A DNA stretch of 64,000 bases from Candidatus Cloacimonadales bacterium (lineage in GTDB: Bacteria; Cloacimonadota; Cloacimonadia; Cloacimonadales; JAFGVF01). The stretch lies in the NCBI GenBank assembly GCA_963667035.1, contig OY762964.1, positions 224,001-288,000 on the forward strand. Reading direction: 5' to 3'. Position numbers: made by a program. Shown piece by piece: positions 18,001-33,000 of the stretch. Every line of letters begins with the position of its first letter. Within the stretch, counting starts at the first letter, position 1.

Positions 18001-21000
18001 GCTTGGATTTGAATCTACAGGATTACATACAAATGGTTATTCTTTAGCAAGGGCAATTGTTTTTGATATTCTTAAACTAAAGCATGATTCATTGCTCCCA
18101 GGGATGAAATATACAGTTGCAGAAGCATTTTTAAAGATTCATAAGTCATATCTTCCATATATGAAGGCATTCTTAGAACCTAATCAGGTTCATGGGATGG
18201 CTCACATAACAGGAGGAGGAATTCAAGGGAATTTGAAACGTGTTATTCCTGATAGCTTAACAGCTGTTGTAGACGTGAAAGCTTGGGAAACTCCCGAATT
18301 GTTTAAACTACTTGTTGATGCAGGCAAAGTGGAAGCAATAGAATCTTATAGTGCTTTTAATATGGGAATAGGATATATTGTTGTTTGTCCCGAAACAGTA
18401 GCAAATCAAATGATGAAAGCAATTCCTGTTAGAGAAATAGGTGTTATAGAAAAGAATTTATATGCCGAAAAGGTAAAATTGATTAATATATGAAGTGGAG
18501 AATAATAGTCCACGGTAAGTTAGGCTCAGCCGAAAACATGGCAATAGATGAAGCCATAATGCTAGCCATAGAAGCCGGGAAAAGCTTACCAACTATAAGG
18601 TTTTATGATTGGAATCCTGCTACAGTATCATGCGGATTCAATCAACGAGCATTGGATGAGATTGACTTCGAAGAGGTTAAACTTCGAGGTTATGGTTTTG
18701 TGCGAAGACCTACCGGTGGTAGAGTTGTTTTACATAAAAACGAAGTAACGTATGCCGTAATTACTCCTTCAATTGATAAATTTAAAGGTGGAATTACCGA
18801 TACTTACGCGGAGATTAGTAAAGCATTAGCCAAAGGATTAACGCTTCTTGGCGTTCCTATTGAGTTTGAGAAAGGTGAGCTTACTGCTTCCGAGCAGAGA
18901 GTGAATGCCAATCCCTGCTTCACTAGTACTTCAAGATATGAATTAAAATGCCTTGGGAAAAAGATAGTAGGAAGTGCTCAAGTTAGAAAAGGTAAAATGC
19001 TTCTACAACATGGCTCTATTCTTCTTCATGCCAATCAAGAAGAAGTTGCTTGGTTGGTGCCCGGACTGGAACCGGAGAAGAAGGAAAAGTTAGCCAGATT
19101 TTTGCAGAGAAAAACAATTTCGATTAATCAAGCACAGAATAACAATTACAATTTCGATAAAGTAACGGAAAAACTTATTCAAGGATTCAAAGAACAATGG
19201 AATGATGATGAATTTGTATTTGAATCAGATATTTCAAATTATGAGCGAGAGTTAATGATAGAGTTAACAGAGAGTAAATATGCAAGAGATAATTGGAATT
19301 TCCGTAAATAAACAGGTGCTTACAGAAAATTTATTGACATTTAAGTTATTCCATTCGTTTTTTGGTAGAATGGAGAATTTTATAAAAACATGGATATTGT
19401 GAAATAGAAAGGGAGGATTAATTGATGCGAAAGATAGCTTCAATATTGTTCTTTGTTTTGCTTTTTGGAAGTTTATCTTTGGTTGCACAAGAGACAGGTA
19501 CCTTAGCTGTTAAAGTAAAAACCAATGACGGAGATTTAGTTTCCTATGCGAATGTTGTGCTGTTTAAAGACGGCGTTAACACTAAGATAGGTGGACAAAC
19601 GAGTAGTTCTGGTACTTGCAGGATTATCAATATTCCACCGGGAGTATATGATGCCAAGATTTCTAAAATGAGTTATGCGGCTGTAACTGTTGAAAGACTT
19701 AGGATTAATGCAGGTTCAGTCACTACTCAAAATGTAAAACTGACTAAACAATCAGTAGCTTTGGACATTGATGTAAGAGTTATTGCAGAGAAGCCCAAGG
19801 TTGATGCCAGTAAAATGGGATCGGGAGCTAGGATCGAAATTGACAACATCGGGGATAAGGCCGTTGATGATGTCGATGATATGTTAAAAGATATTGCCGG
19901 TATATCGGTTACGAACGAAGGTGTCCGTGTTAGAGGCGGAAGAACAGGTGAGGTTGTTTACTCTGTTGACGGTATGCCTGTCTCGGATCCTGTTGATGGT
20001 GGTGTTGCTTTGAGTGTTGATACTGATGCTATTGCTGACATGAATGTAATGACCGGTGGTTTTACTGCTGAATTCGGTAATGCTCAATCAGGTATCGTAT
20101 CAATTGTTACCAAAAGCGGTGGAAGATTTTACTCGGGTAAGTTGGAATATTCTACAGATCACCTTATATCTGACGAAAATAGTAATTCAGATTTGCTTAG
20201 ATTTGCTATTGGAGGTCCGCTGTTAGGATATCGTTCAGGTAAACTAAGAGATAATCTGACTTTCTTTTTAAATGGAAGTGGATCATGGTCTGATGGTCGT
20301 TTTAAGGATAGCTGGAAAAGTGATCCCAATGATGATTTCGTCTTGAATGGAACTTCTCTTCTTAAAACAGATTATGAAGAGTATAATCCGTATAAAGACA
20401 GAGAAGATTTTCTATGGACTGAGTTAGGCGAGAGAAATTATAATAGTTATAATGCTAATTTTAAAACTAAATATCAGATTACTCCGGCAACTAAGTTCAC
20501 TTTAGCCGTTCGTGGCGATAGAGAAATCAATGACGCATATACTCCTAAGGACAAATACGCTCTTCAGCATAATGGACAAAGTGAAATTAATCAGAGACAA
20601 TATGTAGTTAATTTTGATCAAGTCTTTAATCCCCAAATGAATCTTAAGGTAAAAGCTAGTTACTATAACAAAACTACAGATTACGCACCTAAAGGTGTGA
20701 ATCGTAATTCATATATATATCAAACAATTACTGATAATGACATTTACAATTCAGATGGAACTGTTAATCAAGAAATGCTAGATTCATACGTTGCCAATGT
20801 ATTCAGTAACTTTTCAATAGGTAATACTGGAGCAGGATGGGAAACAATAGCAGGGACTAATGATATAATGATTGGTTTCCCTTCTTATGAAGATTGGGTG
20901 TATGAATATACTATTACTCCATTAGAAAAAGAAGGGACAATACCTTTTACTTATCCAGGAACAATTGCAGATACTTTTATCAATGACGAGACAACCACTG

Positions 21001-30000: not shown

Positions 30001-33000
30001 CATATCCGGTAGATAATCCAGCAAATGCTGATGGTTCTTTATATTTTGTAGACCAAAACAATGGCAATGCCCCACTTACAAATATGGATTATACTATTAC
30101 TAGCAATGGACATTTCACACTTGGATGGGATTTGGATGGTAATTTACATATGCCGTCAACTTTTGCTTTAACCGGCGATGCTGCTGATGGTAAGAATTAT
30201 TATTATCCTTCATTACATATACTTAAAGATGTTGTTTATAATGTAGCAGAAAATGAGTTATACTTGGAAGATGTATTCCCTAAAACTTCAGATAATGAAC
30301 ATTTTGTGCATTGGGATTTAGATAATGATGGTAATGTTGACCAATACTGGGATGATGGAACTTATGATAACATTGATGATGATGTAGCTCCAGATGAAGA
30401 AGGTTACGGCAACATCAAAATGGATTCTATATTCCCATTCCCTCATTATGATGAGGATTCTCATGATGAAGCAATGATATTCCATTTAGCTCATACTAAG
30501 ATAACTAATGCTAATGAAGATGGAGTTATGGCTATGGTTTGGCATGACTCTACTCCGGCAAAGGATTTCCATAAGAGTAATTTGACTTATTGGGAACCAT
30601 ATCAGAATACTAATGAAATCTATATCTCATTATCTACAGATAATGGTGCAACATGGCAGACTCCAATTGCCTTTAGTGGTGTATCTGTTGCTGATGATTT
30701 CTGGCAAGACGAGTCAGGAGAAGACTTAGGCTTTGGTGTTGAGCATGCATATATTGCTGATTGGTCAGACATGATACCAATGTTTGCTTATCCAGCGGAA
30801 GAACTTATACACATTGGATCAGGTGGTAATGGTAGCGAAACTTACCGTTTGTTCTTCTATTTTCATGATGACGATGCATGGGGTTGCTCTACACAAGAAG
30901 AAGGTCAACCTGGACCTGGAAAATTAGTTTTCACAGCTCTTGACTTCACTGTTAATCCTACTAGCAATGAAGGTGCTACTGCAACACTATCAAATTCAAT
31001 GCTTAAAGGAAATTATCCAAATCCATTTAATCCAACAACTAAGATTGCTTATACTTCAGCATTTACCGGAAATGTAAACATTAGCGTTTACAATATTAAG
31101 GGACAGCTTGTTAAGACACTTGTTAACGAACATCAAGTTGCAGGCAACCATGATGTAGTTTGGAATGGTGACGATAACAATGGAAAGCAAACCACAAGTG
31201 GAGTCTATTTCTATAAGATAACAAATGGAAACAGAACAGAAACAAAGAAAATGTTAATGGTTAAATAAAATAACTATTAAAGTATATAAAACCCAGCCGA
31301 TTACGGTTGGGTTTTTTTTATTGAATTTCATTATCAAGAAAAAATGAATCATATGAGATAAAAAAAAAGAAAAAGTGCTTGTCAAAAATAATGAATCTTC
31401 AGTTAGTATGATTAGTTAAAAAAGAAGAACTAACCTTATTACTATATAAGTGGTTATTGCATAAACAAGGATAAATTGGTAATGAATATTATTAGACAGA
31501 AAACAGGCTGGATTGAAGTAATATGCGGTAGCATGTTTTCAGGGAAGACAGAAGAACTAATCAGAAGAATAAGAAGAGCTGAGTATGCAAAGCAAAGGAT
31601 TTTAGTATTTAAACCTCTTATAGATAATCGTTATTCAGATAATCAGATTGTTTCTCACACAAAGATGTCAGCCAGAAGTATTAATATTGAGAATGCTGAA
31701 GAGATCTATTTACACTTGGACAGTGCTCCTCATATTGTGGCTATTGATGAAGCACAATTCTTTTCTGATTCGATTGTTGAAGTTGCCAATGATTTGGCAG
31801 ATAAAGGTATTCGAGTAATAATAGCGGGTCTTGATCAGGATTACATGGGTAAACCATTTGGACCTATGCCAAAATTGTTAGCAGTTGCCGAGTACATTAC
31901 AAAGAATTTAGCTATTTGTTTGAAATGTGGTAATCCAGCTAACAGAACTCAAAGATTGACTAAAGATTCAGATACTATTCTAGTAGGTGCTAATGAATTA
32001 TATGAAGCTCGATGTAGAAATTGTCATGAAGTGCCAAACGAGGATTGATTGTGATAGGATTGCTTAATTTTGCATTAGAGTTGTATCAGTTAGTTATAAT
32101 ACTTAGAGTTATAGTGTCTTGGATAATAAGTAATCCATATAACAATTTCTATCAACTTTTAATTAGAGCAACTGAACCTGTATTAAGGCCAATAAGAAGT
32201 ATGTTACCTAAAAGTAATTATGACTTTTCACCAATTATTGCAATATTTCTGTTAAGTTTAATTCAGAGATTTGTTTTAAGACAGCTATATTTTTAATGGG
32301 GGATGCATGACTTTAAAACCGGAAGATATAAAGTACAAAGAATTTAAAACATCTATTGCCGGGTACAACAAAGATGAAGTAAGAGCTTATCTAGAAGAAA
32401 TAGCTCATGATATAAGAGATCAGATAAGCGATTGGGGTAAGAAAAATGATGAAGTAGCATTACAACATAAAGTTACTAAACAAGAAGTTGTTAATGCAAC
32501 TGCAACTGTTAGTGATTTAAAGAAGAGAGAGCAATTAATCACTAGAACGCTAGTTTTAGCAGAGAAGACAAAGGCAGAAATTGTTGATAATGCAAGAAAA
32601 GAAGCTGAATTAATAATAAAAGAAGCCCAGATAAAAGCCCAGAATGCTATACAACAAGCCAGACAATACTTAAATGTTTATGAGCATCAGTTTGTAGCTT
32701 TGAAAGAACAAAAGAGACAGTTTTTAATGAAAATGAAAGCAGAGCTTAACACATTTGTTCATCAAATAGAGAATGATCCCTTGCTTAATAGGAAAGCAGA
32801 GCAAGTAATGGATAAAGAGTTTAAGTCTATACAGGGTTATACTGCTCAGCAGACTACAAAACAAACTCATAGAAATACAGCTAACACAACCCAACAGAAT
32901 AATGAGAAGAAATGAGTTATAAAGAAACAATAGATTATTTGTATCAACAGGGGATTGAAGTTCCGGAAATAGTTATAGTCCTTGGAAGTGGTTTGTCTAC

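Follow-up and report, generated by a model that had tools for sequence, protein, structure and literature searches.

An operon joining a TonB-dependent transporter and its ExbBD-TonB set to type IX secretion cargo in a Candidatus Cloacimonadales genome, probably an uptake machine

The SusC/SusD (RagA/RagB) systems combine a large TonB-dependent transporter, which carries an N-terminal CarboxypepD_reg-type domain, with a surface-exposed partner encoded by the neighbouring gene. In the attachment complex of the Porphyromonas gingivalis type IX secretion system (T9SS), PorU is kept in place by PorV, and PorZ by PorQ. Among ExbBD-TonB sets, the gene order ExbB-ExbD-ExbD-TonB is common in Bacteroidota. 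The GldLM/PorLM motor, which goes together with the GldKN/PorKN track or ring, is presented in the available portions of the literature as a proton-driven inner-membrane unit of the 5:2 type that acts on outer-membrane proteins (PMC12635249, PMC10994853). The accessible text of two further studies describes PorF (PG0534) of P. gingivalis as a predicted TonB-dependent, plug-bearing receptor that is required for full T9SS function, the porF mutant forming beige colonies, losing about 90% of its gingipain activity and resembling porQ and porZ mutants (PMC5445135, PMC12704123); according to these accounts, a receptor can hence be part of the T9SS.

The window analysed here, a stretch of 64,000 nt from a Candidatus Cloacimonadales genome, holds eight genes at positions 19422-31268, all on the + strand. 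From the transporter gene through the gene of a 763-aa protein the intergenic gaps measure 0-25 nt, and the sole strong terminator hairpin of the unit (31288..31315, + strand, a T run following the 12-bp stem) lies 3' of the last gene; hence, the eight genes form one operon. The first gene (19422-22511) encodes a 1029-aa protein composed of a signal peptide, a CarboxypepD_reg domain (39 bits), a TonB-box-like strand (DIDVRVIAEK), a plug (32.3 bits) and an outer-membrane barrel (OMP_b-brl_3, 39.2 bits). Its family profile matches CirA (1.6e-19, the alignment beginning at chain residue 7), PhuR, FepA and PirA in the PDB, and of 31 aligned relatives 26 retain a [VI]x[VI]xA motif ahead of the plug, the window protein with its VRVIA among them. 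These domains, structural matches and the conserved motif mark the product as a genuine TonB-dependent transporter.

Next follow a long-type ExbB of 274 aa (22537-23361, PF01618 95 bits) that is extended at its N-terminus and has a signal-like segment there, a first ExbD of 135 aa (23362-23769, PF02472 94 bits), a second ExbD (ORF 23711-24184, PF02472 62.5 bits), for which the ATG at 23780 (MALLRKK...) is a likelier true start than the ORF start at 23711, and a TonB of 217 aa (24185-24838, PF03544 75.7 bits, TIGR01352 60.9 bits) consisting of an N-terminal anchor, an acidic linker and a TonB_C domain. The genome encodes two more TonB-ExbBD sets and a total of seven plug-bearing receptors. The window ExbB does not cluster with its same-genome paralogues, but with ExbBs of other phyla (38-42% identity) that are linked to the gene module described below.

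The survey's finding had placed this set directly upstream of a "PorZ-tailed" 1018-aa protein and PorV, an order that the ORF coordinates confirm, while both protein names need qualification. The 1018-aa exported protein (24856-27912, + strand) ends in a T9SS type-A-like C-terminal domain, so that its likeness to a sorting domain stands. The remainder is not PorZ-like: the PorZ model scores 22 bits (cut-off 260) and covers the tail only, to which the profile-profile alignment with PorZ is likewise confined. The protein contains repeated acidic DDDGDGxIDED motifs, matched no family in a Pfam search and has its ESM Atlas neighbours in unnamed clusters from Cloacimonadota, Eiseniibacteriota and Krumholzibacteriota. 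When the body alone served as query, 949 cluster representatives were retrieved at E<=1e-3 and 280 at <=1e-10. The family was found in 0 of 8 Bacteroidia vs 9 of 9 SprA-positive non-Bacteroidia, five of which gave a body-level match.

As for the alleged PorV, the adjacent 343-aa barrel (27921-28952, + strand) belongs to the broad PorV/PorQ family (NF033709, 186.5 bits, cut-off 90), and its family profile matches PorV of F. johnsoniae (6h3i_F) at 3e-24, yet it stays below the equivalog cut-offs for PorV (70.9/250), PorQ (74.6/220) and PorV2 (61/325). It is one of 13 PorV-family matches in the genome, five of them over the cut-off, and the best of these (250 bits) lies at 450 kb. A gene for a sorting-tail protein adjoins 7 of 11 PorV-family barrels, the partner being PorU-like in one case; among the cargo-paired barrels, only the window pair is situated near a TonB set. 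Judging from sequence and gene order, the window barrel probably carries or anchors the 1018-aa protein. The last gene (28977-31268, + strand) encodes the 763-aa protein, a predicted T9SS type-A cargo (TIGR04183 44.9 bits, PF18962 36.8 bits) with no assigned function that is syntenic across Cloacimonadota at 31-38% identity.

The genome, which is 98% complete, contains the outer-membrane part of a T9SS, as previously claimed: SprA (2063 aa, 472 bits summed), PorU (615 bits), PorX at equivalog level (682 bits, cut-off 300) and the PorV family are all confirmed by profile scores, and an iterated HMM of our own recovered 149 ORFs with sorting-domain-like tails, up from an earlier count of 130. 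Profile searches at E<=1 returned no GldL, GldM or GldN; the GldK profile matched nothing but fragments of FGE-sulfatase type, the highest at 74 bits (cut-off 350). The positive control that this absence had lacked is now available from four Bacteroidia genomes located via a 16S primer, in which GldL, GldM and GldN each exceeded the cut-off in 4/4 and GldK in 3/4, the gene being broken across frames in the fourth; with a second set, GldL and GldM were over the cut-off in 8/8. Among 121 sampled Cloacimonadota, none had GldM over the cut-off (two weak hits of 15-17 bits), while SprA exceeded it in 56 of 61. A further 33 non-Bacteroidia genomes, of which 32 have confirmed SprA, also yielded no GldM, so its absence is not peculiar to Cloacimonadota; GldL was likewise undetected in the other non-Bacteroidia genomes searched. 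PorP/SprF carriers were over the cut-off in 0 of 15 non-Bacteroidia vs 3 of 3 Bacteroidia. These profile results support the existence of a T9SS outer-membrane set without profile-detectable GldK/L/M/N.

What drives such a system might be a motor that escapes the profiles, either a very divergent GldL/GldM-like pair or another 5:2 motor encoded elsewhere, which we consider a tentative option. PorX, whose P. gingivalis counterpart binds PorL, is kept, and three of the six MotA/ExbB-family genes of the genome adjoin PorV-family barrels. Candidates are a FliG-like and MotAB cluster at 2.79-2.81 Mb, which neighbours a PorV-like barrel and a CHU_C-tailed giant, and an operon with a 717-aa MotA-like product that follows a PorV-like barrel at 1.88 Mb, although the link of MotAB-type clusters to secretion is one of gene neighbourhood. 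Moreover, the genome had no match to TIGR03513, TIGR03517 or PF22827 at E<=1 to 10, and when it was crudely screened by topology for a one-helix protein encoded after a two-helix protein, only NfeD/SPFH, glycosyltransferase and PBP pairs came up. No membrane-bound product is encoded beside PorX, SprA or PorU.

The distribution of the operon's genes gives a broader view of its role. The order transporter-ExbB-ExbD-ExbD-TonB-1018-aa protein-barrel is present in 45 of 57 Cloacimonadota loci, and the remaining 12 end at contig ends with no conflicting order. At least 15 loci outside the phylum, in Krumholzibacteriota, Eisenbacteria, Ignavibacteria/Melioribacteraceae, Gemmatimonadota (where likeness to the 1018-aa family is at tail level only) and other lineages, encode the transporter, a 1018-aa-family protein and a PorV-like barrel in the same order, usually followed by a GWxTD-domain gene. 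An ExbB-ExbD-ExbD-TonB set lies downstream in 4 of 15 such loci, with ExbB at the contig end in one more, and is absent from the available downstream flank in 7 of 15. The unit conserved across phyla is the triad of transporter, 1018-aa-family cargo and PorV-like barrel, with or without an adjacent TonB set. Cloacimonadota have one copy of the module, surrounded by housekeeping genes, with lplA upstream (here and at locus L311) and tdk downstream; this would suit a core function of the envelope better than a variable nutrient locus and thereby speaks against a role in uptake. So do eight loci with usable flanks (L318, L321, L323, L327, L328, L329, L334 and L337) in which tblastn found a 1018-aa-family gene with no adjacent transporter or barrel.

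The survey's finding had proposed that the ExbBD-TonB set replaces GldLM and GldKN, the force of TonB drawing PorV-type carriers and their cargo off the SprA translocon. Apart from the missing Gld proteins and PorP/SprF carriers, this would suit the energy-requiring step in Bacteroidia, at which, by the accessible part of one study, the carrier-cargo complex is extracted from SprA, a pulling task (PMC10994853), and the ExbB lineage of the window does accompany the PorV-like barrel across phyla. The module is also restricted to genomes that contain SprA (23/23) and are without GldM, so that a swap of the energiser fits this pattern as well as a swap of SusD. However, the operon is headed by an ordinary TonB client with plug and TonB-box-like motif, SprA and PorU are located about 2.2 Mb away and nothing ties the TonB set to either, and the barrel is one of seven cargo-paired paralogues and is outscored as a PorV by another match in the genome. 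Its sequence has no periplasmic extension able to carry a TonB box. The seven module loci of other phyla without a nearby TonB set, as well as tandem copies of the module, ill-suited to a single core motor, further argue against the proposal, which was thus not borne out and appears highly improbable.

Alternatively, the operon could be a T9SS accessory module rather than a nutrient importer, with the transporter as counterpart of PorF and the 1018-aa protein and barrel acting like PorZ-PorQ at attachment, for instance in the delivery or presentation of the glycolipid anchor with TonB energy. The porF phenotype, the co-encoding of receptor, tail-bearing protein and PorQ/PorV-like barrel, the single copy and housekeeping context in Cloacimonadota, the restriction to SprA-positive genomes, and a relative, L203, whose barrel is nearer to PorQ (110.6) than to PorV (80.5), all lend themselves to this idea. 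We nonetheless deem it unlikely: only the tail of the 1018-aa protein aligns with PorZ, a better PorZ-like gene (849 aa, 108.9 bits, model positions 304-749) adjoins aroB elsewhere in the genome, and six Bacteroidia genomes contained no full-length relative of the transporter family but N-terminal domains only (best 140 bits vs >=975 for orthologues).

The genomic contexts also point toward uptake. Three consecutive triads occur on one contig of one genome and two in a Marinisomatota genome. Loci in Ignavibacteria have as neighbours a GH9 cellulase and a CBM9 protein, each bearing a sorting tail, one locus having a sodium:solute symporter in addition, and two module loci are preceded by Opp-type ABC genes. 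Tandem copies and such neighbours are typical of uptake loci. We favour, as the rather likely reading, a SusCD-like TonB-dependent uptake machine whose surface partner is delivered by the T9SS. The TonB set then probably serves the transporter of its own operon and not the secretion system. ExbB and ExbD would use proton flow to exert force on TonB, and TonB would tug the plug of the transporter and let the substrate enter. The 1018-aa protein may pass the outer membrane via the T9SS of the genome and, by analogy with PorU and PorZ, be held at the surface through binding of its C-terminal domain to the adjacent PorV-like barrel, where it could capture or process substrate for the transporter in the manner of SusD and surface glycan-binding proteins of Bacteroidia. 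The T9SS would be the delivery route for parts of the uptake machine, and the machine would not serve the T9SS.

Compared with known systems, the ExbBD-TonB set shares with GldLM/PorLM the 5:2-type proton-driven design acting on outer-membrane proteins, as far as the cited descriptions of that motor go, but has no sequence relation to it, and no evidence here supports contact with SprA or the main PorV. PorF, taken by its description in the accessible text, is likewise a plug-bearing receptor genetically tied to T9SS-type proteins (PMC5445135, PMC7463736, PMC12704123), while the window transporter belongs to a family without a full-length relative in the six Bacteroidia genomes. The PorU-PorV/PorZ-PorQ complex resembles the locus in that the gene for a PorV/PorQ-family barrel adjoins that of a protein with a type-A-like C-terminal domain; it differs in barrel type, and the partner body is neither PorZ- nor PorU-like. 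Tail retention and barrel binding would apply by analogy. With E. coli-type ExbB-ExbD-TonB, the window set has in common all three Pfam domains over the cut-off and a position next to a receptor gene, but its long ExbB has a signal-like segment at the N-terminus, ExbD is encoded twice, and the set lies between receptor and T9SS-type genes, its ExbB lineage staying with the module across phyla. Finally, unlike SusC/SusD, the module has no SusD (0 matches in this and three other module-bearing genomes vs 27 in a Bacteroidia control), its partner, instead of being a lipoprotein, is cargo of the T9SS from an unannotated family, with a PorV-like barrel gene adjacent, relatives reach no more than a low score with the SusC model (47 bits, cut-off 368), and the ExbBD-TonB set is encoded within or beside the module; what the two share is the large transporter with its N-terminal CarboxypepD_reg-type domain, the neighbouring gene for a surface-exposed partner, tandem paralogous copies and, in some genomes, glycoside-hydrolase neighbours.

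The locus at window 19422-31268 comprises eight genes on one strand, which were delineated by ORF listing together with Pfam and NCBIfam scans and appear in the order that the survey's finding had described. A receptor of 1029 aa with CarboxypepD_reg, Plug and barrel domains is followed by ExbB (274 aa), two ExbD genes, TonB (217 aa), a 1018-aa protein without Pfam family, a PorV/PorQ-family barrel of 343 aa and a 763-aa protein carrying a T9SS type-A sorting domain. Intergenic gaps within the unit are 0-25 nt, and the sole strong terminator-like hairpin lies 3' of the last gene (31288-31315). 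Housekeeping genes flank the unit on both sides, i.e. pta, an aminotransferase gene, pfkB, purM and lplA at the 5' end, and tdk, yggT and divIVA, followed by more of the kind, at the 3' end. The products of the ExbB/ExbD/ExbD/TonB set pass the respective Pfam cut-offs (MotA_ExbB 95.1 bits, ExbD 94.1 and 62.5 bits, TonB_C 75.7 bits); with the NCBIfam ExbB, ExbD and TolQ/R equivalogs, scores stay below the cut-offs throughout.

Two of the labels assigned earlier hold in part. "PorV" is apt for the 343-aa barrel at the level of the broad family (NF033709, 186.5 bits, cut-off 90), but all equivalogs are missed: PorV (NF033710, 70.9 against a cut-off of 250), PorQ (NF033711, 74.6 against 220) and PorV2 (NF052325, 61.1 against 325). 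Likewise, the "PorZ tail" of the 1018-aa protein reflects a sorting domain that is indeed alike, but the likeness ends there (22.4 bits, cut-off 260, tail only). PorZ includes two propeller domains. An assignment of the 1018-aa protein as PorZ was rejected; hhalign aligns only columns 904-1028 with 664-755, corresponding to the sorting tail in the last ~120 columns. The gene with the strongest likeness to PorZ in this genome is located elsewhere (1540734-1543283, 1.54 Mb; L343:1483-4032 in our locus numbering); it encodes 849 aa, matches model positions 304-749 with 108.9 bits, under the cut-off of 260, and adjoins aroB without a PorQ-like neighbour.

The receptor passes the cut-offs of the Plug domain (PF07715, 32.3 bits, cut-off 23.9) and of PF14905 (39.2 bits, cut-off 27), while PF00593 is matched by its relatives. 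A profile built from an alignment of 31 relatives matches CirA (1.6e-19, from chain residue 7), PhuR, FepA and PirA. Judged by its sequence, the window receptor is a real transporter. Ahead of the plug, 26 of the 31 relatives harbor a putative TonB-box-type strand of the form [VI]x[VI]xA, a pattern that we take to be the TonB-box consensus and that is not a model; the corresponding stretch in the window is DIDVRVIAEK. Seven plug-bearing receptors are encoded in the genome, of which only that of the window adjoins a TonB set. No full-length relative of the receptor family was found in six Bacteroidia genomes searched.

Relatives of the barrel led to 64 loci, 57 of them in Cloacimonadota. The seven genes from receptor to barrel are arranged as in the window at 45 of these 57 loci, with roughly 40-65% identity; the remaining 12 end at contig edges, and nothing conflicting was seen. 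Loci from other phyla were collected in two sets and read by Pfam, NCBIfam and tblastn. Outside Cloacimonadota, the order receptor, 1018-aa-family protein, PorV-like barrel recurs at 15 loci, in most cases followed by a GWxTD-domain protein. This protein of ~500 aa is encoded 3' of the barrel at L200, L203, L204, L311, L313, L315, L316, L317, L320 and L326, and a literature search found no paper mentioning GWxTD. An ExbB-ExbD-ExbD-TonB set comes next at L311, L316, L320 and L322, and L317 has ExbB at the contig end, while the available downstream flank of seven loci (L200, L203, L204, L207, L315, L332 and L335) does not contain the TonB set; at the rest of the 15 loci, the sequence ends too early to judge. 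The window ExbB shares 38-42% identity with module-linked ExbBs from other phyla, but at most 32% with the paralogues in its own genome. The clade that joins it with the former is supported with 86/93, although this clade may simply represent the long type of ExbB, because every long-type ExbB in the tree is linked to a module.

At eight loci with usable flanks, a member of the 1018-aa family occurs without an adjacent receptor or barrel, which counts against a strict module. Some features are of the uptake type. Triads of receptor, partner and barrel can be multiplied, with three consecutive ones on one contig of a SprA-positive genome and two in a Marinisomatota genome. In Ignavibacteria/Melioribacteraceae, triads are flanked by two proteins with sorting tails, one a GH9 cellulase and the other a CBM9 protein, and at one locus also by a sodium:solute symporter; Opp-type ABC genes precede the triad at two other loci.

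In three collinear segments, the 1018-aa protein body shows homology to the partners at non-Cloacimonadota loci, with the exception of the Gemmatimonadota locus L207, where the match is confined to the tail. Used alone, this body retrieved 949 cluster representatives (E≤1e-3) among 1.84 billion. Among 34 long relatives scanned with Pfam, 25 were without family; in the others, sorting tails, fn3, LTD and a single FG-GAP fusion were recognized. Searched against PDB sequences, the family profile returned two chance-level matches only. The family was met in none of eight Bacteroidia versus all nine SprA-positive non-Bacteroidia, at body level in five of these. For the body of the 763-aa protein, the ESM Atlas gave unnamed clusters only (at 0.90-0.91).

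The simplest account of the eight-gene operon, and in our view a probable one, is a TonB-dependent uptake machine with T9SS-delivered partner(s), a PorV-like barrel as holder and a TonB-opened receptor. The surface partner or partners would be exported through the T9SS and then held by the dedicated PorV-like barrel, while the receptor would be opened by ExbBD-TonB. Alternatively, the operon could be an accessory of the T9SS itself. This appears unlikely, but is kept alive by the single-copy occurrence and housekeeping setting of the module in Cloacimonadota as well as by the literature on PorF, a predicted TonB-dependent plug protein. PorF loss is described as mimicking porQ and porZ mutants (PMC12704123; table of PMC5445135), and its function is listed as unknown in a third paper (PMC7463736).

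The barrel in the operon is one of many. PorV-family matches in the genome amount to 13, of which five exceed the cut-off (best 250.5 bits at 450 kb, cut-off 90), and seven of 11 barrel ORFs lie directly beside a gene for a tail-bearing protein, one such partner being PorU-like. The barrel family profile matches the solved F. johnsoniae PorV over the first ~200 residues (3e-24). A second cargo-barrel pair is found in the window, consisting of an ExeM/NucH-like nuclease with sorting tail (34654-36045, 463 aa) and a PorV-family barrel (36054-36896, 280 aa, 68.7 bits, under cut-off). Of the cargo-barrel pairs in the genome, none but that of the operon has a TonB set nearby.

The genome, a single contig of 3.10 Mb with 98.2% completeness, otherwise encodes the T9SS set that had been claimed for it, as profile scores bear out for SprA, PorU, the PorV family, PorX and tailed cargo. 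SprA reaches 472.7 bits in sum over a 2063-aa frame (TIGR04189, cut-off 200) and PorU 615.5 bits (cut-off 420); a second PorU-like gene is followed by a PorV-like barrel. Sorting-domain-like tails were assigned to 149 ORFs with an HMM iterated on the proteome. PorX (2861078-2862634) is matched at equivalog level with 682 bits (cut-off 300). It is kept although PorL, its reported partner, is undetectable, and its neighbours are soluble proteins.

The claimed absence of GldK, GldL, GldM and GldN stands as well, now with positive controls, namely Bacteroidia genomes reached via the 16S primer site and searched alongside, in which the profiles score over cut-off. GldL (TIGR03513), GldM (TIGR03517) and GldN gave no match in the genome at E≤1, and each was over cut-off in all four controls of the first set; for GldL and GldM this holds in 8/8 Bacteroidia when both control sets are combined. 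GldL_N (PF22827) had no match even at E≤10. GldK yielded only FGE-sulfatase fragments (best 74 bits, cut-off 350), while it was over cut-off in three of four controls and broken across frames in the fourth. The best PorP/SprF match (TIGR03519) was 23 bits, with a cut-off of 90.55. No Gld-like neighbours were seen beside the FGE-sulfatase genes, screening by topology for neighbours of the GldL/GldM type gave nothing convincing, and no motor candidates adjoin the SprA, PorX or FGE-sulfatase genes. Two controls showed peculiarities of their own: a Sphingobacterium genome (G002) has GldK/L/M/N without a SprA match at E≤1e-10, possibly a miss of the long-query search, and in a Chryseobacterium genome (G003), gldK, gldN and sprA are interrupted by frame breaks at many places, apparently a matter of assembly quality.

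GldM is likewise missing across the phylum, as had been proposed, with none of 121 sampled Cloacimonadota genomes over the cut-off and two weak matches of 15-17 bits inside 1231- and 1798-aa frames. SprA is over cut-off in 56 of 61 Cloacimonadota genomes, and all five misses belong to one family with genomes of 1.5-1.6 Mb. In this family (f12: G043, G046, G049, G058 and G064), the small genomes are complete and none of the five matches the receptor profile, which suggests a lineage that shed much outer-membrane transport gear. Since the receptor family is missing there too, the family is uninformative for separating the TonB set from the T9SS.

Missing GldM is not special to Cloacimonadota. 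With a SprA alignment, loci were fetched from WOR-3, Calditrichaeota, KSB1, Neomarinimicrobiota, Ignavibacteriota and three further lineages, and SprA reaches 526 bits on a Gemmatimonadota chromosome. GldM was over cut-off in four of four further Bacteroidia, with no match at E≤0.01 in 20 other genomes and then none in 13 more, these GldM-negative genomes being mostly metagenome bins of unstated completeness and the Gld profiles being built on Bacteroidia. Of these 33, the SprA test took in all but one titled Lentisphaeria, and it confirmed SprA in each of the 32. GldL separates the genomes in the same manner (4/4 Bacteroidia versus 0/20 others), as does PorP/SprF with 9-18 copies in each of three Bacteroidia and 0/15 others over cut-off. 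Thus, the absence in one phylum becomes a controlled, broad pattern, in which GldM is missing from the present genome and from 32 other SprA-positive ones that represent about ten lineages, and 8/8 Bacteroidia have it. According to earlier work, T9SS "may also be present" in Cloacimonadota and other FCB phyla (PMC11285876), a MacSyFinder model including Gld proteins detected T9SS in Bacteroidetes only, namely in 60 of 97 genomes (PMC4793230), and enzymes of Fibrobacter succinogenes bear T9SS tails apparently lost from them (PMC6851124). Our literature search returned general statements only, and no paper stating or explaining a GldKLMN-less T9SS or describing the module.

The survey's finding had concluded that the ExbBD-TonB set replaces GldKLMN as the energiser of the T9SS. 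Such a direct swap could explain the co-location of the set with a PorV-like barrel and the complementary phyletic distribution, yet SusD shows the same complementary distribution, with no match (PF07980) in this and three other module-bearing genomes and 27 in a Bacteroidia control. Nothing specific beyond co-location and phyletic pattern speaks for a swap, and the set adjoins a plug-bearing receptor with a TonB-box-like strand; we consider this role highly improbable. In a broader version, which we regard as very unlikely, T9SS outside Bacteroidia, with SprA, PorU, PorV and cargo proteins in the hundreds, would operate without any GldL/M/K/N/PorP chain and receive proton-motive input via the TonB module. 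This module, comprising a PorF-like receptor, a protein with sorting tail, a PorV-like barrel and a long-ExbB/ExbD/ExbD/TonB set of its own, would be an ancestral coupler later replaced in Bacteroidia by the gliding-derived GldLM track.

Six MotA/ExbB-family genes are encoded in the genome, one of them in the window set. Compact TonB-ExbB-ExbD sets occur at 816 kb and 1.63 Mb. A TolQ-like set at 331 kb (324160-339041) contains TolQ-like and ExbD-like genes and one for an unknown 174-aa protein; it also encodes a 500-aa protein with AgmX/PglI-type C-terminal domain and lies behind two TPR giants of 1494 and 680 aa. At 2.80 Mb (2792335-2806587), a FliG-like protein of 476 aa is clustered with MotA/PomA-like and MotB-like proteins, and no further flagellar genes were seen nearby. 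This cluster is co-directional with AAA_22, Wzz/tyrosine-kinase, LytR and Wza-type genes (polysaccharide export) and divergent from genes for a PorV-like/TPR protein of 494 aa and a 1553-aa FG-GAP protein with CHU_C tail. An operon at 1.88 Mb (1875140-1887794) encodes a four-helix 717-aa protein with a weak MotA_ExbB match, next to a 2663-aa Ig-repeat giant with sorting tail, a 327-aa PorV-like barrel and membrane proteins of 202 and 314 aa; no Pfam, NCBIfam or PADLOC (Zorya-type) family was found for its proteins.

Taken together, the locus defines a conserved envelope module without annotation, composed of a transporter, a Pfam-less cargo family, a PorV-like barrel and an ExbBD-TonB set, often with a GWxTD protein; it occurs, among others, in Cloacimonadota, Krumholzibacteriota, Eisenbacteria, Ignavibacteria and Marinisomatota. 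Current models regard the GldLM-GldKN chain as the sole energy source of a T9SS derived from the gliding apparatus (PMC12635249, PMC10994853). The driver of SprA-based secretion in lineages that have neither GldLM nor GldKN nor PorP by profile searches is therefore a real question. Compared with the T9SS of Bacteroidia, the present genome shares SprA/Sov, PorU, a PorV-family carrier and type-A cargo, whereas the GldL/M motor, the GldK/N track or ring and the type-B carriers PorP/SprF were not found by their profiles. A SusD-family lipoprotein gene beside the transporter, the feature of SusC/SusD pairs, is likewise missing in this genome, and the module may represent the way in which SusD-less relatives of the Bacteroidia equip their TonB transporters with surface partners, with the T9SS delivering them.
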